NCBI GenBank assembly: GCA_951406725.2
Contig: OX597823.1
Location: 28,210,001-28,274,000 of the forward strand
Length of the DNA: 64,000 nt
Direction of reading: 5' to 3'
Source: Octopus vulgaris
Taxonomy: Eukaryota
In this document: positions 1,350 through 63,492 of the stretch, one piece after another
Layout: every line of letters starts with the position of its first letter
Position numbering within the stretch: the first letter of the stretch is position 1
Translations under genes and position numbers: made by a program
Notes under the pieces: model-generated
What the model was told of the DNA's origin: nothing
The model's input: the letters and a program-made list of their open reading frames with translations, nothing else
Databases searched by the model: none

Positions 1350-2157
<808 letters not shown>

Positions 2158-17579: not shown

Positions 17580-17918
17580 TTATCGCTTTCACAGTATTCT
17601 CCATTTGAAGCACTGCATCGGTCCAGACGCGTTTTCTACTGTTCGAAACACGCCAGGATCTCTTGCGATGCAATAACTTTTAACGTCTCTGTCGTATTTT
17701 GCTTCGCCTTTCCACATCTGCAAAACGATTTCCTTTAATGACTTTTTTCACTCGGCGCACAAAATAAAAGTCGCAGGGAGCAAGATCGGATGAATAAGGA
17801 GCGTAGGTAAGCAGAGTCATGCCATTTATAGTCAAAAACTCTTTCACATTCAATGCAGTTTGCACAGGTGCATTGTCGTCATGAAACCACCGATTTTCCC
17901 TTTGCTATAGATCAGGTG
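17580..17918 (-). pseudogene. mariner transposase C-terminal fragment
   Basis: YAPYSSDLAPCDFYF resembles the HPPYSPDLAPxDF motif; downstream RLDRCSASNGEY; frameshifted. Confidence 0.85.
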
Positions 17919-20470
17919 TTTTTCGAAAATTTTCTCCGAAAAATTTTCACCAACAAATTTTACCCAAAAATCTTTCGAAAATGTTCACCGAAAATTTTTC
18001 CCAAATATTTTTCGAAAATTTTCACCGAAAATTTTACCCAAAAATTTTCTGAAAATTTTTCCCGAAAATTCAACCGAAAAATTTTTCGAAAATTTTACCC
18101 AAAAGTTTTTCGAAACTCTTCACCGAAAATATACCCACAAAATTTTCCGAAAATTTTCGCGAAAATTTTACCCAAAAATTTTACCCAAAATTTTACCCAA
18201 AAGTTTTACCCAAAAGTTTTACCCAAAAATTTTACCCAAAACTTTTTCGAAAATGTTCACCGAAAATTTTACGAGAAAATTTTCACCGAAAATTTTTCGA
18301 AAATTTTACCCAAAAATTTTCTGAAAATTTTCACCGAAAATTTTACCCAAAAATTTTTGGAAAATATTCACACAAAATTTTACCCAAATACTTTTCGAAC
18401 ATTTTCACCGGAAAGTTTTCAAAAATTTTCACCGAAAATTTTCCCCAAAATTATCTGGAAATTTTCACAGAAAATTTTACCCAAAAATTTTCTGAAAATT
18501 TTCGCCGAAAATTTTACAAAAATTTTTCAAAATTTTCACCGAAAATATCCTCAAATATTTTTCGAAAATTTTCACCCAAAGATTTTTGAAAATTTTCACC
18601 GAAAATATCCTCAAAATTTTATGAAAATTTTCGCGAAAATTTACCCAAAACTTTTTCGAAAATTTTCACCGAAAAATTTTCAGCAACAAATTTTACCGAA
18701 AATTTTTCGAAAATTTTCACCGAAAATTTTTCGAAAATTTTTTTTACCAAAACTTTTCGAAAATGTTCACCGAAAATTTTACTGAAAATTTTCACCGACA
18801 ATTTTACGAAAATTTTTTTTCGAAAATTTTCACCGAAAATATCCTCACAAAATTTTTCGAAAATTTTCGCGAAAATTTTACCCAAAACTTTTTCGAAAAT
18901 GTTCACCGAAAATTTTACGAGAAAATTTTCACCGACAATTTTTCGAAAATTTTACCCAAAAATTTTTCGAAAATTTTGGCCGAAAATTTTACCCAAAACT
19001 TTTTCGAAAATGTTCACCGAAAATTTTACGAGAAAATTTTCACCGACAATTTTTCGAAAATTTTACCCAAAAATTTTTCGAAAATTTTACCCAAAAATTT
19101 TCTGAAAATTTTCACCGAAAATTTTACCCAAAAATTTTTGCCGAAAATTTTACCCAAAAATTTTTCGAAAATATTCACAGAAAATTTTACCCAGATACTT
19201 TTCGAAAATTTTCACCAGAAATTTTTCAAAAATTTTCACCGAAAATATTCCCCAAAAATTATCTGGAAATTTTCACAGAGAATTTTACCCAAAGATTCTT
19301 CAAAAAGATTCTCCGAAAATTTTACACAAAAATTTTAACCAAAATTTTTGGAAAATGTTCAATGAAAATTTTACCCAAATACCTTTCGAAAATTTTACCC
19401 AAAGATTTTCGAAAATTTTCACCGAAAATTTTACCCAAATATTTTTCTAAAATGTTCACCGAAAATTTTTCCCAAATATTTTTCGAAAATTTTCACCAAA
19501 GAATTTTCGAAAATTTTCACCGAAAATTTTACCCCAAAACTTTCTGAAAATTTTTACCGAAAATTCTAACCAAAAATTTGTCGAAAATTTTACCCAAAAC
19601 TTTTTCGAAAATGTTCACCGAAAATTTACACAAAAATTTTCACCAACAATTTTTCGAAAATTTTACCCAAAAATTTTGCGAAAATGTTCACCGAAAATTT
19701 TTGGGTAAAATTTTCGAAAAATTTTGGATATTTTCGTTGAAAATTTTCGAAAAATTTTTGGGTAGAATTTTCGGTAAAAATTTTCAGAAAATTTTTGGGT
19801 AAAATTTTCGGTGAAAATTTTCGAAAAATTTTTGGTGAAAATTTTGGAAAAATATTTGGGAAAAATTTTCGGTGAACATTTTCGAAAAATTTTTGGGTAA
19901 AATTTTAGGTGAAAATTTTTGAAAAATCTTTGGGTAAAATTCTTGTGAAAATTTCCAGATAATTTTTGGGGAAAATTTTCGGTGAAAATTTTTGAAAAAG
20001 TTTTGGTGAAAATTTTCGAAAAGTATTTGGGTAAAATTTTCTGTGAACATTTTCGAAAAATATTTGGGTATAATTTTCGGTGAAAATTTTTGAAAAATTT
20101 TTGGGTAAAATACTCTGAAAATTTCCAGATAATTTTCATTTTCGAAAAGTATTTGGGTAAAATTTTCGGTGAAAATTTTCGAAAAATATTTGTGAAAAAT
20201 TTTCGGTGAACATTTTCGAAAAATTTTTGGGTAAAATTTTCGAAAAATTGTTTGAAAATTTTTGTGTAAAATTTTCGGTGAACATTTTCGAAAAATTTTT
20301 GGGTAAAATTTTCGAAAAATTGTTGGTGAAAATTTTTGTGTAAAATTTTCGGTGAACATTTTTTCAAAAAAGTTTTGGGTAAAATTTTCACCAAAAATTT
20401 TTCGAAAATTTTCACCGAAAATATCCCCACAAAATTTTTCGAAAGTTTACCCAAAACTTTTTCTATTTGA
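17919..20470. repeat. AT-rich satellite of ~12-13-bp A4T4 subunits with internal inversions
   Basis: Units such as gaaaattttcacc / gaaaattttaccc; orientation flips near 19697 and again near 20383. Confidence 0.95.
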
Positions 20471-20474
20471 AAAT

Positions 20475-20680
20475 GTTTGTGTGTCTTTGTTCCCCAAACA
20501 TCGCTTGACAACCGATGCTGGTGTGTTTACGTCCCCGTAACTTATCGGTTCGGGAAAGAAACCGATAAAATAAGTACTAGGCTTACAAAGTATAAGTCCT
20601 GTGGGCAATTTGCTCGACTAAAGACGGTGCTCCAGCATGGCTGCAGTCAAATGACTAAAACAAATAAAAGAATAAAAGAA
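20475..20680 (+). mobile_element. SINE family A, 3' half
   Basis: cgcttgacaaccgatgctggtgtgtttacgtcccc...gtcaaatgactaaaacaaataaaag. Confidence 0.85.
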
Positions 20681-22710: not shown

Positions 22711-22718
<8 letters not shown>

Positions 22719-23619
22719 AAAAAAGGTTTGAAAATGCAATTTAAACGATGTTTATTTACTTAACCGGTTTCACTCTTTGGTAAAAGATTGTCAAAAGTTA
22801 CATTTAAGGAAACATTGAATAATATGGGTTCAAAAAAGTTTTTTTACATAATTGTCACATTGAATATTATGCATTCTAAAAAGTTTTTTACATAATTGTC
22901 ACATTGGATATTATGGGTTCAAAAAAAGTTTTTTACATAATTGTCACATTGAATATTATGCATTCAAAAAAGTTTTTTACATAATTGTCACATTGGATAT
23001 TATGAATTCAAAAATGTTTTTTTATACATAATTGTCACATTATTTGGGAAAATTTGGCAGAAAAGGATAAAACAAATATATTATTGGGAATTGGTTGCGT
23101 TAATTATTGGTTGTCGCAAATTGTCACATTACATGTATATATATACAATCTTTGGTATATATATACAGCGTTTTGACAGCAAAAATTAAAATGGATTTTT
23201 TGTACATCTCAGAATATTTTAAGTATGTTTTTACTGACCTGTCAGTATTAGCAGAAAGGCTGAACTGAGAGAACAGAAGAAGTAGCCAATGTGGTGTATA
23301 CTTCCCCTTTATGCATGAATGATTTTGGGGTTATCAGGAGGTTAGTATGCGGGTGTGAATAGATGTGTCCGTGCCTGCTGGTCAGACAGCGTCTGTTTGT
23401 CACACACATATATATACACACAAACACACACACACACAACAACACACACACACACACACATAGTATACAAACACACACCACATACAAACAACACACACAC
23501 ACACAGAACACACACACCCACACACAACGCACCCACATATATCACATATACACACAGCACACAAATATAACATGTATCTATATATAACATACACAGATAT
23601 ATAACACACATACACACAC

Positions 23620-23665
<46 letters not shown>

Positions 23666-24236
23666 TACATACATAATATAAATATCACACAAATACACCT
23701 AGCATATATATACACACATACAATACACACATACAGCATGTAAGTAATATACATACACAATATATGCATGCAATATACATACGCAATACATACATATAAT
23801 ATATATATATATAGACAATGCATATACATATATACACATATACATATAAATAGTGTTTACATACACATACATAGATGTACCACATATACACACAACACAC
23901 ATACATACAATGCATACACATACACGTACGCATACATATAATATATATATACACACACACACACATAACATACATACACACACAATGCATACATATATAT
24001 ACACGCAATGCATATACATGTATTCATGCACATATAGCACACCTACAATATACATATATACAGTGCACACATACACACAAATATATACACTTAATTGTAC
24101 ACGTACATATACAATACACATACATACAATATACATATACACAATGCGCATGCAAATAATGTACATGTTTATACACACATAAACATGCAAATAAATATAC
24201 ACACACACACATACACACACACACATATATATACAC

Positions 24237-24268
<32 letters not shown>

Positions 24269-24348
24269 ATACATACATACATGCACATACATATATTTTT
24301 TCACACACATACACACACATATATATATAAAAAAAATTCACCACCCCC
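22711..24348 (-). repeat. Left pseudo-LTR arm (sense to the ORF)
   Basis: Reverse complement of 27831-29385; has 5 copies of a ~44-bp cataattgtcacatt unit versus 3 in the right arm. Confidence 0.95.
22758..22798 (-). ncRNA. Minimal hammerhead ribozyme motif, U3-A8 core variant
   Basis: Minus strand: ACTT-TTGACAA-tcttt-tacc-aaaga-gt-GAA-ACCGGT-T-AAGT. Confidence 0.6.
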
Positions 24349-24897: not shown

Positions 24898-27159
24898 TTA
24901 GAGTATGTTTAGTTGTGGTCTGTATTTTTGAATAAGATTACTTTCCTTATTTATTCGTGTTTGGTCTGTGGTGTTGTCCGAGCATTGGTATAGTGGGAAG
25001 ACTAAGAATTTGGGGGACTTATTGTGTGCACAAAGGTCTAAGTGTCCACTTAGTGGTATCTGTCTTGTGGAGGGGTCCCTCAGTTGTTGTCGGTGAACTG
25101 TCATTCTGTCTCTGAGGGTAAGGCTCGTTTGCCCTATGTAGTCTTCGTGGCATCCTTCACACCTTATGACGTAGAGTAAATTTTTTGATGCGCACGTGAA
25201 GTTATTTTTTATGATGAATGTGTGTCCCGAGTGGAACTTGTACGACGATCCCTCAATGAGGTGGATGCAGGTCTTACAGTTGGGGCGACCACATTTTTTG
25301 ATGGTGGGCGGTGGGTTTGTGTTGTGTAATTTTGCGTTGGTGAGGAGGTTTTTTAGGGATTTAGGTTGTCTCTTACTTTTTATTATTTTATGAGCTGCCA
25401 GTATTTTTTTCAGGCGTGGGTCTTGATTTAGTTGTGGAATGTTGTTGTATATAATAGTGTAAGCTTCTGCATTCCTTGGGTTGTGTGTTGAGAGATAAGG
25501 GAGGCTATTGACTGTACTGTGGATGTGTTTGGGTTTTCGAAGGTCTTGAATGTTGATTGATTTGGCCCGTTCTATTCCGTTGTCTACTAGTGATGCCGGG
25601 TAATGTCTTTCGAGAAGAATTGCCCTTAGTTCCCGGAGTCTTCTATTTCGTGTTGTGTCATTTGAGACAATAGTGCAGATTCTTCTCGCTAGGTTGAAGG
25701 GGATATTTGTCTTTGTGTGTTTTGGGTGATTGGAGGTGAATAGAAGGTATTGTTTAGAGTCAGTGGGTTTGTAATGGATGTCAGTTTCAATGTTGACGCC
25801 TTTTTTAATGATTAGGATGTCAAGAAAAGGGAGTTGGTCCTGACTATATTCCATTGTGAATTGAATGTTGTTATTTACACTGTTGATAAGGTTTTTGAAG
25901 TCTATAAGTTGGTCGAGTGTGTGGGACCATAGGATGAGGCAATCATCTAAGTAGCGTTTCCAGTTCTCCAACAGGTATTTGTGGAAAGACTGGCCGTACT
26001 TATATTTGGATTTTTCATAGATATGTGATTCCAGGTAGGCCATCACCAGGTTTGCATAGGTAGGTGCAACTTTCGTACCCATTGCAGTCCCTGAGACCTG
26101 TCTGTAAGTGTTGTTGTGGAAATACATGAAGTTGTTTTGCAGAATAAATTTGAGGCCCTCAATTATGAATTCTTTTTTAATTCTTTCCGGGATCTCATTG
26201 GGATATTTATCCAGCCAGAATTTAATGGCTTCCAGTCCAAATTCATGTGGGATTGTGGTGTAAAGATTAATAACATCAAAAGAAACGATTAAGGTGTCTT
26301 TATCGGCATGTTTGGGGAGATGGTTTAATAGGTCCAGGTCATCTCTTACAATACTTGGAATGTGTTTCAGTATTGGCTTTAAGATGATATCTATAAAGTT
26401 GCTAAGTCTGTGTGTTTCACAACTTGGGCCTGCCACTATTGGTCTCAGTTTGAGATCAGTGGGATGTGGTATAGTGATGCAGGTTGAAGTGGACTTTTTG
26501 CAAGCTTCTGTGATAATTTTTGGAAGCCCATAGAGTGTGCTGGTTTTGCAATTAAATTTAGTAATGTAGTCGCATTCCTTTGCTGCCAAGTCATTCTGGT
26601 GTTGGTAAATGAGTGCCTTCAGATTGGTCATTGTTTTGGATTGCTGGTAGTCGACTACTCTTTCGTAGTATGTGGTATCCTCTAAAAGGAGAGATACAGA
26701 GTTTTTATATTGCTCAGTATTCATAACAACGACCGTACTACCCTTATCAGCTTCCTTTATTGTGACGTCATGATTGTCTCGTAGCGTATGGATGATTTCC
26801 CATTCTCTTTTACTGGTGTTGGGTTTGAGTTTAGGTTGTGGGAGTTCACCATAAGGGAAGTTGGAGATGTAATCGCAAAATTTGTCTAAGGTTTTGTTTT
26901 TGCCTTTTATGGGATTATAGTTGCTTTTGTTACAGACCATTGATTCGTCGTTATTATTAGTTTTTCTGTCAAAAAATTCCTCTGTGAGGCGTAATTTTCT
27001 GCAAAAGTGCGAGATGTCATCCTGTATTTCCCTCAGGTTAGGGTATTGCGGAGTTGGGGTGAATTTTAGTCCTCTTGAAAGGATTTTTATTTGTGGTGTC
27101 GACAGGTTTAGGTTAGAAAGATTCACTATTTTTGGTTTTTCGGGGTTGGTATCTACCAT
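24898..27159 (-). CDS. Penelope-like (Neptune clade) reverse transcriptase + GIY-YIG endonuclease, 753 aa
   Basis: ADKG, LRPIV, SFDVINLYT, QVSGTAMG, RYLDD, LPFLD RT motifs; CGRPNCKTC linker; NLLYVIRCEGCHEDYIGQT GIY-YIG. Confidence 0.95.
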   Translation of the reverse strand: MVDTNPEKPKIVNLSNLNLSTPQIKILSRGLKFTPTPQYPNLREIQDDISHFCRKLRLTEEFFDRKTNNNDESMVCNKSNYNPIKGKNKTLDKFCDYISNFPYGELPQPKLKPNTSKREWEIIHTLRDNHDVTIKEADKGSTVVVMNTEQYKNSVSLLLEDTTYYERVVDYQQSKTMTNLKALIYQHQNDLAAKECDYITKFNCKTSTLYGLPKIITEACKKSTSTCITIPHPTDLKLRPIVAGPSCETHRLSNFIDIILKPILKHIPSIVRDDLDLLNHLPKHADKDTLIVSFDVINLYTTIPHEFGLEAIKFWLDKYPNEIPERIKKEFIIEGLKFILQNNFMYFHNNTYRQVSGTAMGTKVAPTYANLVMAYLESHIYEKSKYKYGQSFHKYLLENWKRYLDDCLILWSHTLDQLIDFKNLINSVNNNIQFTMEYSQDQLPFLDILIIKKGVNIETDIHYKPTDSKQYLLFTSNHPKHTKTNIPFNLARRICTIVSNDTTRNRRLRELRAILLERHYPASLVDNGIERAKSINIQDLRKPKHIHSTVNSLPYLSTHNPRNAEAYTIIYNNIPQLNQDPRLKKILAAHKIIKSKRQPKSLKNLLTNAKLHNTNPPPTIKKCGRPNCKTCIHLIEGSSYKFHSGHTFIIKNNFTCASKNLLYVIRCEGCHEDYIGQTSLTLRDRMTVHRQQLRDPSTRQIPLSGHLDLCAHNKSPKFLVFPLYQCSDNTTDQTRINKESNLIQKYRPQLNIL

Positions 27160-27830
27160 CTGGTGTCGTGGAAACTGATGCCCTTGCCTAAAAAAGGAAT
27201 CCTGGGGGTTCTTCTATTTGCGGTATTTTGCTGTATGTGATTCTGTCCCCCGTTGACATGTCTGTTGAAGAGGTTTTGGTTGTTGTGATTCTGTCCCCCG
27301 TTGCTATGTTGTCTGTTGAGGAGGTTTTGGTTGTTCCAGGGTCTGGGTTGTTGGTGTGGCCTCCTGGAAGAGTTTTGGTTATTCCAGGGTTTGGGTTGTT
27401 TGTCCTGGGTGTAATGTTGGTTCCTTAGAGTGGGTTGGAAACTATATTCATGGTTTAGGAGTGAATTCCTATATGTTGGGGGAGAACTCTGAGTTAGGAG
27501 CGGTTTGGGTTGGAATCTACAATCATAGTTCAGAGATGGGTTTCTAAGTGATGGGTAGGATCTCCGAATCTGGAACGGTTCTTGTGTGGGTTGGGGTCTA
27601 CGTTGTCTGGTAAAGTTTTGTCGTGTGATGATGGGTGTCTCGGTTCTTTTGATGGGATTGTAGTGCTGTCTGTAAGTTCTGTTGTTGTTGTTGTCGATGT
27701 TAGGGGTGGTGTGTGTTCGGTGTTTTGTGGTTGGTTTTCTTTGTTTTTGGCGAGGGGTGTGAGTTGAAGTAGATATTTTAAAATATGGGTTGCTTGAAAG
27801 GTGTTCCTTTGTGAACTCTGTTTCATAATT
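27153..27830 (-). CDS. 5'-truncated upstream ORF (ORF1-like; N/Q/R/P/T-rich), overlapping the RT ORF
   Basis: Manual translation: 225 sense codons with no stop from the pLTR junction (NYETEFTKEHLSSNPYF...) to ...RRTPRIPFLGKGISFHDTRW*; no start codon, so absent from the ORF track. Confidence 0.75.
   Translation of the reverse strand, partial: NYETEFTKEHLSSNPYFKISTSTHTPRQKQRKPTTKHRTHTTPNIDNNNNRTYRQHYNPIKRTETPIITRQNFTRQRRPQPTQEPFQIRRSYPSLRNPSLNYDCRFQPKPLLTQSSPPTYRNSLLNHEYSFQPTLRNQHYTQDKQPKPWNNQNSSRRPHQQPRPWNNQNLLNRQHSNGGQNHNNQNLFNRHVNGGQNHIQQNTANRRTPRIPFLGKGISFHDTRW
27189..27195 (-). promoter_or_regulatory. Candidate -1 ribosomal frameshift slippery heptamer U UUU UUA
   Basis: Minus strand ccT TTT TTA ggc is in the ORF1 frame; the -1 frame is open into the RT ORF (FFRQGHQFPRHQMVDTN). 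Confidence 0.6.
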
Positions 27831-28521
27831 GGGGGTGGTGAATTTTTTATATATATATATGTGTGTGTATGTGTGTGAAAAAATATATGTATGTGCATGT
27901 ATGTATGTATGTATGTGTGTATATATATATATATATATGTGTATATATATGTGTGTGTGTGTATGTGTGTGTGTGTATATTTATTTGCATGTTTATGTGT
28001 GTATAAACATGTACATTATTTGCATGCGCATTGTGTATATGTATATTGTATGTATGTGTATTGTATATGTACGTGTACAATTAAGTGTATATATTTGTGT
28101 GTATGTGTGCACTGTATATATGTATATTGTAGGTGTGCTATATGTGCATGAATACATGTATATGCATTGCGTGTATATATATGTATGCATTGTGTGTGTA
28201 TGTATGTTATGTGTGTGTGTGTGTATATATATATTATATGTATGCGTACGTGTATGTGTATGCATTGTATGTATGTGTGTTGTGTGTATATGTGGTACAT
28301 CTATGTATGTGTATGTAAACACTATTTATATGTATATGTGTATATATGTATATGCATTGTCTATATATATATATATTATATGTATGTATTGCGTATGTAT
28401 ATTGCATGCATATATTGTGTATGTATATTACTTACATGCTGTATGTGTGTATTGTATGTGTGTATATATATGCTAGGTGTATTTGTGTGATATTTATATT
28501 ATGTATGTATGTGTGCGTGTG

Positions 28522-28556
<35 letters not shown>

Positions 28557-29385
28557 GTGTGTATGTGTGTTATATATCTGTGTATGTTATATATAGATAC
28601 ATGTTATATTTGTGTGCTGTGTGTATATGTGATATATGTGGGTGCGTTGTGTGTGGGTGTGTGTGTTCTGTGTGTGTTCTGTGTGTGTGTGTGTTGTTTG
28701 TATGTGGTGTGTGTTTGTATACTATGTGTGTGTGTGTGTGTGTTGTTGTGTGTGTGTGTGTTTGTGTGTATATATATGTGTGTGACAAACAGACGCTGTC
28801 TGACCAGCAGGCACGGACACATCTATTCACACCCGCATACTAACCTCCTGATAACCCCAAAATCATTCATGCATAAAGGGGAAGTATACACCACATTGGC
28901 TACTTCTTCTGTTCTCTCAGTTCAGCCTTTCTGCTAATACTGACAGGTCAGTAAAAACATACTTAAAATATTCTGAGATGTACAAAAAATCCATTTTAAT
29001 TTTTGCTGTCAAAACGCTGTATATATATACCAAAGATTGTATATATATACATGTAATGTGACAATTTGCGACAACCAATAATTAACGCAACCAATTCCCA
29101 ATAATATATTTGTTTTATCCTTTTCTGCCAAATTTTCCCAAATAATGTGACAATTATGTATAAAAAAACATTTTTGAATTCATAATATCCAATGTGACAA
29201 TTATGTAAAAAACTTTTTTGAATGCATAATATTCAATGTGACAATTATGTAAAAAAACTTTTTTTGAACCCATATTATTCAATGTTTCCTTAAATGTAAC
29301 TTTTGACAATCTTTTACCAAAGATGAAACCGGTTAAGTAAATAAACATCGTTTAAATTGCATTTTCAAACCTTTTTTCTTATATA
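27831..29385 (+). repeat. Right pseudo-LTR arm (inverted), followed by a unique 35-nt tail at 29386-29420
   Basis: Reverse complement of 22711-24348; tail atcccactcgtgcgataccccacaactcaactttt is absent from the left arm. Confidence 0.95.
29299..29338 (+). ncRNA. Minimal hammerhead ribozyme motif, U3-A8 core variant
   Basis: ACTT-TTGACAA-tcttt-tacc-aaaga-t-GAA-ACCGGT-T-AAGT; stem I ACTT/AAGT, palindromic stem III. Confidence 0.62.
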
Positions 29386-29416
29386 ATCCCACTCGTGCGA
29401 TACCCCACAACTCAAC

Positions 29417-29457
<41 letters not shown>

Positions 29458-29459
<2 letters not shown>

Positions 29460-29846
29460 TGAAGTGTATTTGCCACCAAAATGTGGCTGACCCATATGGG
29501 ACGATGCTACTGTTGTTTATAGGTCCAGGAAGAAATCTGCTCCAGCTGGTTAATGACACACTGTCTGTGCATTATCAGTATTTTCAAAGGGAAATCATCG
29601 TTCCCATCTCTGGCCTGGCTTGATACACACGGATCCGGGTTTCTGAGTAGTAACCGGTCATCAGCGGGTGACAATCACCTGCCAGGTATGAGAAGTGATA
29701 TTTCCAATGCAAATATGTATGCTTTGTCCAGTGACAAAAAGTCGCTGATCTCGAAAAAAGGAGAAGCAAGCAATAATAAATCTCTGAGCGAGATATAAAC
29801 AGTAGTAGCACGACATCGTGAAGTGCATTTGCCAACTAAATGTCTT
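29458..29846 (-). mobile_element. ~360-nt hammerhead-containing monomer with terminal redundancy (retrozyme/PLE-like)
   Basis: cgtgaagtg(t/c)atttgcca repeated at 29458 and 29818; homologous to 63185-63492; inverted fragment follows at about 29848-29901. Confidence 0.8.
29626..29670 (-). ncRNA. Type I hammerhead ribozyme motif, canonical core
   Basis: Minus strand: cacccg-CTGATGA-ccggt-tact-actca-GAAA-cccgga-TC-cgtgtg. Confidence 0.75.
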
Positions 29847-31664: not shown

Positions 31665-33280
31665 ATACGACCGTAAGCCCGAACGCATCATCGAAAACGA
31701 TTATGCAAAGATCCTGTGGGATTTTATTATTCAGTGCGACCATGAGATAGAGAATAGGAAGCCAGACATAGTCTTAATTGAGAAAGAAAACAAACGATGC
31801 TGGATCATAGATATAGCATGAAAGCACCCGTGCTAAAACTGCTGCCTTAGATATTCTGACTAATAAATGGCAAGGAAAACCTCTCAATGGCAAATACCCA
31901 AATAGAGCGAATAATACCGATGTTGACAAATACCTTACCCATCAATGGCTAATAGCTTCTGGCTTAAAATCTAAAACAGAAGAGTTTATCAAAGCAGCCC
32001 AAGATCAATGCCTCCCTACAAGGAACTACCAGGCCAACATTTTAAAGAACAGCAGCTTCCCAACATGTCGTGTATGTCAACAACAAAATGAAACCATTGA
32101 TCATGTTGTCTCCATGTGCAGTGTTCTTGTGCCTACAGAGTATGTCAACAGGCATGATAGAGCTGCACAATATGTTCACAGAATAATTTGCAAAATCCTG
32201 GACTTGCCCCATGATAAAAACTGGTGGGAAAACAAACCACCCCCAGCGCTTGAAAATGATCTCATCTCGCTTTTCTGGAACTTCACCATTCAAACTGACA
32301 GAAAGATAGATGCAAATAAACCAGACATCATATTGAAACACTTCAGACAAAGAACATGCCTCCTCATTGATATGATTGTCCCAATCGATATGAAAGTATC
32401 TGTCAAGACCTACCAAAAACTGAGCAAGTATAAAGATATTGAAATAGAAATTGGCAAAATGTAGAACCTGAAGATAAAGACAATACCTGTTGTCATAGAT
32501 GCCCTAGGAATGAAAGCAAAATGGGCTGATTGCTACCTATCTCAGATACCAGGAAACCCCAAAATGGCAGAAATTCAAAAGATAGTGCTCATTGAACTGC
32601 CCATATCCTACGTAAAATATTGTCTATGTAATCTCAAATTTTAAAACAAACACATAATTTTCTTATGGTTTCTTAAACATTCTGTAGAACAACACTATGT
32701 AAAAAGCTAAATATATGGCATCCTAGGCATAACACCAACATGAACTTCCATCTTATTGTCTCTTGAGGTCTCTGGGTGAGACTTGGAGCCAACTTGTACA
32801 AATGCAAAGCAAAAGTCAAACACAACATAATAATAATAGAACAATGCAACATTAAAACTGACAATAGGTGGTACAAACATAAGCGAAACAAGGTACAAGA
32901 CAATGAGCAAGGCATCACCATCTGGGATATGCCGGTTCAAACCGACGAAGAAATATAAGCTAGTCTGTCAGATATACTAATCAAGGATTGTGAAAAGAAA
33001 AAAACACACCTGCTTACTGGCAGTCATTACAGCCCCTTCTGATCAAAATATTATCCTAAAAGAAGTGGAGAAATGATCATAAAAGCCTTGAAATTGAAGT
33101 ATTTATGATGTGGGGCATGGAGGTGGAGAGAGTACTAATAATGATTGGAACTCAGCGCATGATAAAAACCATTTGAACAAAAACGTAGAAGCTATACCTG
33201 GATCTTCAACACTACACACCATCCAAAAAATAGCCCTGCTAGGAACAGCCTACACCCTACGCAAGCCACTATCAATTAAA
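31663..33280 (+). mobile_element. Chain of three 5'-truncated RLE-type (Dong/R4-like) LINE fragments
   Basis: 31663-31820 ILWDF..RKPDIVL..IIDIA; 31821-32826 AAQDQ, CRVC..ETIDHVVSMC, RHD, KPDI, KLSKY plus 3'UTR ending in (TAA); 32839-33280 TIWDM..IQKIALLGTA. Confidence 0.88.
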
Positions 33281-38288: not shown

Positions 38289-38520
38289 GCACTTCATTAT
38301 TTAAATTATTCACATTAGACGGATATATATCATCATCTTGTTTGTTGTTACCACAACGTTTCGGCTGATTTACTCTCCAGCTTTTATCAGGTGCCCTGGT
38401 AGAATTTTGAACCCAACAGTGGGTTCTCATTCCTAACAACAAGCAAGATGAGGATACATATCCGTCCAATGTAAATAATGTGAATAATGTATAGAATTCT
38501 TCATCTCTAAAATATAGAAC
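38289..38520. mobile_element. Miniature inverted Penelope-like element with hammerhead and 8-bp TSD
   Basis: Inverted arms 38296-38350 and 38434-38489; aatacgta at 38281-38288 and 38521-38528. Confidence 0.7.
38352..38393 (-). ncRNA. Hammerhead ribozyme motif (G8A mutated)
   Basis: Minus strand: cac-CTGATAA-aagctg-gagagtaaat-cagcc-GAA-ACGT-T-gtg. Confidence 0.65.
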
Positions 38521-39208: not shown

Positions 39209-40818
39209 GGGGAAGTGAAAGGGAAAGTGAAGACCACAAATTCAGTCGTGTTAGATGTTGACACAGTCATAAGAGAGCTTGAGCAAGAACAAACATACAA
39301 ATATTTAGGGATAAATGAAGGCTCTGGTATTCAGCATGCAAGCATGAAAGAGAAAATCAGGAAGGAATGTTATAGGAGAGTTCGTGCAGTCCTGAAATCT
39401 GAACTAAATGCACGTAACAAGGTGTTAGCTATAAATTCCTTAGCAGTTCCAGTTGTTACTTATAGCTACAATGTGTTGAACTGGAATATGAGTGAAGTAA
39501 AGAATATAGATAGAAAAATACGCAAGCTGCTGAGTTGTAATAGGATGCACCACCCAAAGGCAGACGTAGATCGCCTTTACCTTCCCAGAGCCCAAGGAGG
39601 TCGAGGCCTGATCCAATTTGAACTAGCTTACAAAACAACCACAATTGGACTGGCCAAATATCTCGAAATATCGAATGACTGGATGCTAAAGCTCGTGGAA
39701 AATCACGAGAGACGAAAGAAGCTTCATTCTATCATAAAGGAAAGCAAAAAATTTGCTATTGATCTCGTGCAGGATACCCAAACTGAACAACCCGAGGGAA
39801 GTACGGCAACTATTGTTGCAAAGAAGGTGAAAATGATGGCAATGAAGAAAGCGCACGAGCAATTGGCTGATAGGTGGGAGGAGAAACCTCTGCACGGCAA
39901 ATATGTGACCCGCAGCAAACAAGCTGATGTTGACCAGAAGCAAATCCATCAGTGGCTACGGAGCTCAGGGCTAAAAGCAGAGAGCGAAGGTTTCATCCTG
40001 GCTGCTCAAGATCAAAGCCTATTAACCCGGAACTACCAGGCCAATGTGATGAAAAATGGAGCAGACCCAAAATGCCGATTCTGCAACGACATGATTGAAA
40101 CAGTGGACCACCTAATCTCTGGATGTAAAGTCTTAGCACCAGTGGAGTATAAATTAAGACATGACAGAGTTGGCCAATATCTCCACTGGCTAATAAGTCG
40201 GCATTACAATATCAAAACTGCCGACAAGTGGTATAATCACCACCCTGAGGCTGTAACTGAAGGAGAAAATGTAACCATTCTGTGGGACTTTCCAGTACAT
40301 ACAGACCGAACCATCACGGCCAATAAACCAGATATTGTTGTGAAAGACCAAAATAATAAAGTTTGCTTATTGATCGATATGAGCATCCCCTGTGATCATA
40401 ATATCTCAGCGAAAGAGTTTGACAAGCTCAGAAAATATAAAGACCTACTCATTGAAATTGAGAAAATGTGGCATCTCAAGGCGGTTACAATACCAGTGAT
40501 CGTAGGAGCACTAGGAATGATCAAGAAGGGAACCGAAAATTATATGAGAATGATCCCTGGCTTACCATCCCTGCAAGAAGTGCAAAAGATTGTCTTAACT
40601 GGTACATCACACGTATTGAGAAGAGCATTGTTGATGTGAGAACTGTTGCTGCTCATGTATTTTAATTTAACTAAAAAAAAAAAAAAAAAAAAAAAAAAAT
40701 GAACGAACTACTGAGTTTGATTTAATGGCCTACCATTGTATACTATGAGCTTCTTTGCCCTAGGAGTCGGGAAGACACTCGGCAAGAAATGGAAGCAAAT
40801 TTGAAAGAAGAAAAAAAA

Positions 40819-50758: not shown

Positions 50759-51086
50759 CTATCAATTGTTTTCTCTAGAATTGAGAACAGAAAGTGTTTG
50801 TTAAAAGAAGGCTCTGGAATCATCGATAATTTCGGTAAACAATAGAAATTGGAATTGATATGATACAATCTAAAATATCGATCACTTAATTCTGTGTGAA
50901 CGGCAAACGAAGAAAAAACAATAATTAACTTTCAATTGTTTAAGCATTTATTAAAAAAAACCAAAAAAATGCTAATCGATTATTGTTCAAATACAAGGAT
51001 TATTACGTAATTATCTATCGATTCTATATTGCGTTCACATATCAATTTTCTTTCGTTTCCATTTCATATATATATATATACATATA

Positions 51087-51424
51087 TTACGGAGATGTAC
51101 TTGCATAGCAAGTGACCTGATCTGAGATCGTGTGCTGGAAGGAAAACAATTGCAGCGTGGAAGGTTGCAGCGGTCTCAAAACGACGGAAGCTATTTAGGA
51201 AACACACAAAATCCGTTAGATTCACATTTAAATATAATTTGTCAAAATATTTTCGTCGTTTTGAGACCGCGACCTGTTCATTGACAAAATTCCGATGCAG
51301 CACGGAATTTTATCAGTGAACAGGTCGCGAAAATATTTTGACAAATTTAAATGTTGAAGTAAATCTAACGGTTTTGTGTTTTTCTTAAATGGCTTATAAA
51401 CACCTTCCACGCTGCAATTGTTTT
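51087..51424. mobile_element. Palindromic hammerhead-bearing Penelope-like element in TA/TG microsatellite
   Basis: Arms 51143-51294 and 51303-51424 around an 8-nt loop; extra tail 51087-51142 on one arm only. Confidence 0.75.
51240..51286 (-). ncRNA. Hammerhead motif, G3-C8 core variant (second copy 51311-51343 on +)
   Basis: Minus: TGTCA-ATGAACA-ggtcg-cggtctcaaaa-cgac-GAA-AATATT-T-TGACA; the plus copy has GTGAACA but a stem II deletion. Confidence 0.6.
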
Positions 51425-63184: not shown

Positions 63185-63492
63185 TTCTCCTTTTTCGAGA
63201 TGAGCGACGGTTTGTCACTGGAAAAAGCATATATAGTATTTTGCGTTTGGAATGTGTTTTCATCACTAGCTGGTGATTGTCACACTCTGATGACGGGTTA
63301 CTACTCAGAAACACGGGTCTGTGTGTATCACGATTTCCCTTCGCAAATACTGATCGGACACAGTGTGTCGTTAGCCAGCTGGAGGAGATCTCCTGGGGCT
63401 ATAAACAACAGTTGCATCGTCCCATATAAGTCAGGCACATTTAGGTGGCAAATATACTTCATGATGTGCTGCTACAGAGATTTATTATTGCT
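63185..63492 (+). mobile_element. Second, circularly permuted copy of the 29458-29846 hammerhead monomer
   Basis: Starts ttctcctttttcgagat and ends cagagatttattattgct, which in the other copy lies just upstream of that start. Confidence 0.8.
63281..63325 (+). ncRNA. Type I hammerhead ribozyme motif, canonical core
   Basis: cacact-CTGATGA-cgggt-tact-actca-GAAA-cacggG-TC-tgtgtg. Confidence 0.75.

Follow-up and report, generated by a model that had tools for sequence, protein, structure and literature searches.

The window analysed here is a 64,000-nucleotide stretch of the Octopus vulgaris genome (GenBank assembly GCA_951406725.2, contig OX597823.1, positions 28,210,001 to 28,274,000 of the forward strand), and coordinates are counted from its first letter. 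It contains a Penelope-like element with a 771-aa open frame (24898..27213, minus strand) that encodes a reverse transcriptase (RT; Pfam RVT_1, E 5.8e-08), a Cys linker and, C-terminally, a GIY-YIG domain (E 4.7e-05), both matches being above the Pfam cut-offs. The frame is followed by a microsatellite-rich 3′ pseudo-LTR or 3′ UTR with (TA)n at its end (22717..24332, minus strand). An inverted copy of this 3′ end lies on the 5′ side of the element (27843..29384, plus strand), and the two arms are 98.3% identical over 1,460 columns. (TA)n is present at both flanks, and a tail of about 37 nt occurs at only one of the insertion's ends (29385..29421, plus strand), followed by (TA)n. These features, together with the single frame for RT and C-terminal GIY-YIG, are those of endonuclease-bearing Penelope-like elements, and the inverted 5′ copy, one-sided tail and (TA)n agree with the insertion layout in the accessible text of PMC8557442. 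The Neptune and Nematis elements treated there share the C-terminal GIY-YIG and preceding Cys linker, as well as the inverted 5′ copy, one-sided tail and (TA)n flanks, a likeness of layout and linker rather than of position in a tree. A view of the arms (22.7-24.3 and 27.8-29.4 kb) as terminal repeats of a DNA transposon was also considered and rejected, since RT and GIY-YIG are encoded by the intervening frame. A 275-aa open frame (27153-27980, minus strand) overlaps the start of the 771-aa frame in another phase and has no Pfam match; it may represent the N-terminal portion or an upstream frame set apart by a frameshift.

Each arm carries a minimal type I hammerhead motif with a TTGACAA core, and thus a U3-A8 pair, and the stem III palindrome ACCGGT (family A). 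The copy in the 3′ pseudo-LTR is in sense with the ORF (22758..22798, minus strand; U3 at 22794, A8 at 22789, U17 at 22762), and about 45 nt separate its predicted cut from the element's 3′ end. The copy in the inverted 5′ arm is directed away from the ORF (29299..29338, plus strand; N3 at 29303). As these are inverted arms of one insertion, they constitute a single observation. The 22758 copy represents the family type, given that all 40 scored genome matches (881 candidates) were 100% identical to it. The 29299 copy has a private deletion of one stem II base, seen in none of the fetched loci compared with 41 full copies. Directly upstream of the motif in both arms lies a degenerate tandem array of about four units, each roughly 40-60 nt long (22800-23050 and 29130-29290); some contigs of other organisms match this array apart from the motif.

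Also present is a head-to-head fold-back insertion of two short 3′ ends of a second family (family B; 51086..51424), with a tail of roughly 55 nt on one side. One of its motifs has a G3-C8 core (GTGAACA, palindrome AATATT; 51311..51343, plus strand; N3 at 51316) and is decayed, with 14 nt of stem II deleted. Its inverted partner (51238..51288, minus strand; N3 at 51281) has a full stem II and A3, a mismatch at 3-8. Three further motifs have the C3-G8 core CTGATGA. The family C copy (1760..1816, minus strand; N3 at 1811; palindrome ACTAATTAGT) bears G17, and its stem II is shortened, while 19 of the 34 rows of that family combine an intact palindrome with A17. Two copies belong to family D/E: one with a decayed palindrome in a separate insertion adjoining the family A element (29626..29670, minus strand), and one in which both the palindrome and stem I are decayed (63281..63325, plus strand; N3 at 63287). 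The perfect palindrome ACCCGGGT of family D/E is absent from both.

All six motifs reported in the first-pass annotation are thus present in the window, and their assignment to the minimal hammerheads of Penelope type is supported by core and stems and, for families A and B, by placement behind an RT and GIY-YIG frame. The annotation had also listed an ACGT palindrome. This exists, but on a further decayed copy (38352..38393, minus strand; N3 at 38390) that has a C3-A8 mismatch where its family majority is C3-G8. Most motif copies in the window are damaged, the departures lying in stem II at 51311, in G17 at 1760 and in the palindrome at 29626 and 63281. At the level of families the expected structure is found: stem I of 4 bp (A) or 7 bp (B), stem II of 5 bp, a palindromic stem III and a non-G H17. 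The core bases U4, G5, A6, A9, G12, A13 and A14 and the A15.1-U16.1 pair occur in families A-E.

Considered by itself, the window is suggestive but weak evidence for hammerhead motifs. A relaxed scan that left positions 3 and 8 open but demanded a perfect palindrome and a stem I of at least 3 bp returned 23 rows, 17 of them within one tandem repeat at 17.9-20.4 kb. The remaining six include 29303 (plus), 22794 (minus), 51316 (plus), 51281 (minus) and 38390 (minus); the three CTGATGA copies were missed because of G17 or broken palindromes. Shuffled windows gave a mean of 1.93 chance matches under the same scan, 0.74 of them with a paired 3-8. The tandem repeat's GTGAACA and TTGAAAA look-alikes were rejected, as they form only 0-2 pairs in stem II. 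At the Rfam gathering score there were no matches across 10 sources, and canonical families were missed too. The best match of the family A motif to an Rfam hammerhead family had an E of 2.3, and Rfam on the whole window gave microsatellite-driven microRNA noise among the matches listed (150 of 177 rows). None of the seven window motifs folded better as a single strand than its shuffles (z -1.50 to 0.81).

The families are better judged genome-wide. A family A pattern with positions 3, 7 and 8 left free matched 2,150 times in the genome, and the family B pattern 7,902 times; the reversed patterns used as controls matched nowhere. Family-level evidence therefore far exceeds chance. The first-pass annotation had predicted that the variant pairs would be conserved in their families, and this is the case, with U3-A8 in 99 of the 100 family A matches listed and G3-C8 in 96 of the 100 listed for family B. 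A pattern excluding U3 recovered 15 family A copies (10 with C, 3 with A and 2 with G at position 3), all of which retain A8; the decay of inserted copies is thus uncompensated. Between subfamilies of family A, N7, H17, loop II and the upstream flank vary while the core is constant, a constancy that is partly circular because the copies were chosen by core patterns. Sequencing runs of three other organisms yield a high-depth contig that aligns with 22748-22797 only, a 50-nt region containing the motif, and has unrelated flanks. The motif is also covered by contigs of four runs whose RNA nature is only a guess; they differ at H17 and in the flanks, with no difference listed at 3 or 8. Next to stem II, family A has U-U and then C-G in place of the G10.1-C11.1 pair.

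The parent element of family B was reached through longer copies. From 150 protein matches, 20 loci were taken, 15 because their open frames were long and 5 because they were divergent. A same-strand GTGAACA lies downstream of the frame in 16 and GTGAAGA in one, with none in range in three. Both search patterns fixed part of the core; this protein-anchored test did not. One locus (L364) has an open, intact 1,025-aa frame with GIY-YIG above the cut-off (E 1.8e-05), and its motif lies 1,006 nt downstream. Pfam did not identify RT in this frame, and the family B RT is visible only by weak similarity to the family A protein. Identity between the A and B proteins is about 24-30% and confined to short stretches, so the U-A and G-C swaps lie in distant lineages. 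Among 46 distinct aligned rows of family B, 41 are G-C at 3-8, three are A-C and two are gapped. A 3.4-kb tandem with family B copies on C2 has no frame of at least 250 aa. Many short family B copies share a point, upstream of the core by about 20 nt, at which they start or fold back (51293-51300 in the window, and L035, L041, L044, L045 and L053); in longer copies this point is immediately preceded by a branch-point-like CTAAC, a pyrimidine run and AG. Judged by these letters, the start point looks like a 3′ splice site that would mark the beginning of the copied RNA.

It could be argued that a loose pattern picks up such motifs by chance in AT-rich repeats. The 0.74 paired matches per shuffled window and the GTGAACA look-alikes yielded by the 17.9-20.4 kb repeat are what such a view would draw on. 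Against this, the motif is the sole hammerhead-like site in the 3′ region of each element, at the expected place, and no canonical CTGANGA core was found elsewhere in the 3′ regions of family A and B elements. In addition, a stricter scan of 864 kb gave 17 matches, 12 of them paired, versus 0-5 for seven decoy cores, the best of which turned out to be a real family. The protein-anchored position refutes this explanation, which we consider vanishingly improbable.

The family exposed by the decoy-core search has U at position 6, although A6 of the hammerhead core is normally invariant. It is the largest family counted, with 20,287 genome matches (none for the control), and is absent from the window (examples are L278:2705, L352 and L177:7791-8090). 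Among 100 matches listed, 94 have U6, four A6 and two C6, and N7 varies freely; the stems, the ACGT palindrome and C3-G8 are all intact. At 25 loci behind Penelope-like frames we identified CTGTNGA in 18 and CTTTTGA in one, with none in range in six and no core with A6. The frame in L278 and L352 continues beyond the nuclease into low-complexity sequence. Thus, the textbook core is evidently not needed for the spread of a very large family.

For families C and D/E, a comparison of three Penelope-like proteins with 3-kb loci (L061-L120) gave no match, and these copies may be too short. CCGANGA (C4) copies were seen in several families (L169, L189, L025, L281, L238 and L164). One 10-kb stretch (L121) has seven copies of a single C3-G8 motif with ACCGGT and is possibly a tandem retrozyme-like array.

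To survey families more widely, 1.52 Mb (the window, 800 kb chosen by position, including 120 kb flanking the window, and the search loci) were scanned with positions 3 and 8 free, and the matches were clustered, with 31 singletons set aside. In all 15 multi-copy families the majority 3-8 pair is Watson-Crick (10 C-G, 4 U-A and 1 G-C). Permutation gives p = 6.7e-5 for 15 families and 0.006 for the 11 non-seed families, values that are optimistic because the families are related and their independence is overstated; the family data require only two or more swaps. H17 is A, C or U across families and rarely G, as the cleavage rule predicts. The compensatory variation at 3-8 proposed in the first-pass annotation is hence real between families but absent within them: the covariation expected in family alignments was not found, as the 15 family A copies without U3 illustrate.

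This lack of compensation within families raises the question of whether the variant cores are founder accidents, that is, dead or drifting remnants amplified from one master copy in which pairing at 3-8 arose by luck. That only a single G-C family was found, and that most window copies are decayed, would fit such a history. An accident of this kind would not, however, be expected to leave all 15 families paired, with no mismatch majority, or U-A in four clusters. Nor does it readily account for subfamilies that alter loops and flanks and not the core, or for the high-depth contig from three other organisms' runs whose match covers the 50-nt region of the motif without its flanks. We therefore regard founder accidents as highly unlikely.

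Some of these variants have precedents. In their account of the minimal hammerheads of metazoan Penelope-like elements (Cervera and De la Pena 2014, PMC4209133), the motifs occupy the same place in the pseudo-LTR, have a short stem I and a palindromic stem III, and likewise occur mostly in solo truncated copies and inverted pairs. According to the accessible text, a U3-A8 subtype with about 1,300 matches in Schistosoma mansoni was recovered after the canonical descriptor had missed it. Both U3-A8 in Penelope-like elements and the resulting undercount are thus already published, and the focal U3-A8 motif is ordinary. Natural U3-A8 covariation, as in family A, is also among the core variants described by Perreault et al. 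2011 (PMC3088659). The closing pair G10.1-C11.1 that is usual among the PMC4209133 motifs is absent from family A, which has U-U beside C-G. By comparison, family B fits the published consensus in its extra base after A9, G10.1-C11.1 and palindrome.

That a search restricted to CUGANGA undercounts ribozymes, as the first-pass annotation had anticipated, holds for this genome as well. Of 41 family-assigned motifs in the 800-kb sample, 18 are canonical, nine are U3-A8, one is G3-C8, six are C4, five are U6 and two are other. About half (23 of 41) would therefore be missed, ten of them through 3-8 swaps.

The G3-C8 and U6 families are probably undescribed variants. Unlike the octopus families, none of the 56 representatives in Fig. 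S3 of PMC4209133 has G3-C8 or U6. The same G3-C8 pair is known from engineered C3G/G8C hammerheads, in which cleavage is partly rescued (anole Poseidon, PMC11167929; review PMC8495972). Those are laboratory mutants, whereas the G3-C8 of family B is natural, fixed and present in thousands of copies with an open full-length frame. U6 parallels a natural change at the same position, A6C (phage Bcep176, PMC7151607; PMC3088659). The accessible parts of PMC3088659 and PMC7151607 name U3-A8 and A6C, and not G3-C8 or A6U. Neither natural G3-C8 nor A6U was found in the papers searched, which were available in part and include PMC6765202, PMC6155905, PMC10085705, PMC12192606, PMC6962438 and bioRxiv 10.64898/2026.07.22.740005; most subscription papers, including a 2017 paper on dimers, lay outside this scope. 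No description of hammerheads in octopus Penelope elements was found in the papers searched.

Tentatively, we suggest that recently amplified Penelope-like families carry cores unreported from nature, G3-C8 (about 7,900 copies) and U6 (about 19,000), and may amount to a natural experiment on the need for cleavage. If this is so and G3-C8 cuts while U6 does not, catalysis would be optional for spread. If U6 also cuts, the dimer or the element's own protein would relax the core rule. In either case, the families are ready natural constructs for probing the role of the hammerhead.

Nearly all Penelope-like elements have a hammerhead motif, the role of which is described as unsettled and the in vitro activity as low (PMC4209133, PMC11167929). 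For the anole element, the accessible text of PMC11167929 reports that single mutants at 3 or 8 abolish cleavage and that C3G/G8C partly restores it, that cleavage needs the protein of the element, and that insertion proceeds in vitro without a need for cleavage, with no RNA-seq ends at the cut site. Our preferred reading, to which we assign a probability of roughly 0.7, is that the octopus motifs are hammerhead-shaped sequences in Penelope-like 3′ repeats, with one 3-8 version per family, and that they are likely slow ribozymes assisted by dimerization or by protein. Their most likely activity would be weak, assisted self-cleavage of the element RNA 3′ of H17. Selection on master copies would have retained the 3-8 pair since it forms in the active conformation, swaps would have arisen rarely in founding lineages, and copies would decay without compensation after insertion.

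The same findings can be read in another way, namely that the fold of the hammerhead persists as a structural signal or one for protein binding (whether to give the RT or endonuclease a handle or to mark RNA ends), that little or no cleavage takes place, and that the 3-8 pair is kept for shape. The lack of effect of catalytic mutants on in vitro insertion and the missing RNA ends at the cut (PMC11167929), as well as the weak in vitro activity of minimal motifs (PMC4209133), are in line with this, as is the strong reduction of cleavage in Mg2+ by A6C (PMC7151607) when set beside a largest family that is U6 (94 of 100 matches listed, 20,287 in total; 18 of 25 protein-anchored loci). What speaks against a purely structural role is that 3-8 pairing is part of the rearranged active core (PMC3884650), to which double swaps that preserve the pair point, and that H17 is A, C or U and rarely G, which fits the cleavage rule. 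On balance, a structural signal seems to us rather unlikely. Under the preferred reading of assisted ribozymes, a pair of the active conformation that is kept through double swaps in separate lineages would be indirect evidence of selection on that conformation.

Small hammerhead variants associated with Penelope elements reportedly cleave as dimers, to judge from the title of a paper by Lunse, Weinberg and Breaker (RNA Biol 14:1499, 2017). In a double hammerhead, each junction draws the strands of stem I from two molecules. Two octopus motifs are accordingly predicted to pair via the palindromic stem III and to exchange stem I strands, with the choice of partner set by stems I and III together. 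The 3-8 pair lies within one strand and is thus predicted to have no role in this choice. As the two family A copies of the window are on opposite strands, they could not form a dimer with each other in one transcript.

The suggestion that each family has its own palindrome is contradicted by ACCGGT, which is common to the U3-A8 family A and a C3-G8 family, and by ACGT, which is common to at least three clusters; shared palindromes also occur in the PMC4209133 set. A preference of dimers for the same family is nevertheless predicted by modelled pairs, through stems I and III jointly and not through the palindrome alone. Among 11 representatives, a full stem III duplex formed in four of 55 pairs, three of which have an incompatible stem I (0-1 bp), while the fourth joins sister families. 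In one additional pair, stem I is full and stem III partial. Unconstrained cofolding gave the double-hammerhead arrangement in two of 12 motifs (C and F), and not in the other ten. The family A dimer is off-pathway in the energy model; its stem I has only 4 bp and U-U adjoins stem II.

Other features of the window include a fold-back array of about 2.7 kb (17830-20530), composed of a short tandem repeat of A/T runs with many inverted arms of 71-83% identity, which was a source of false hammerhead matches. Open frames at 31817-32464 and 39209-40639 (both plus strand) have weak zf-RVT matches (E 7.5e-05 and 0.0015, respectively) and are likely to be 3′ parts of LINE elements.
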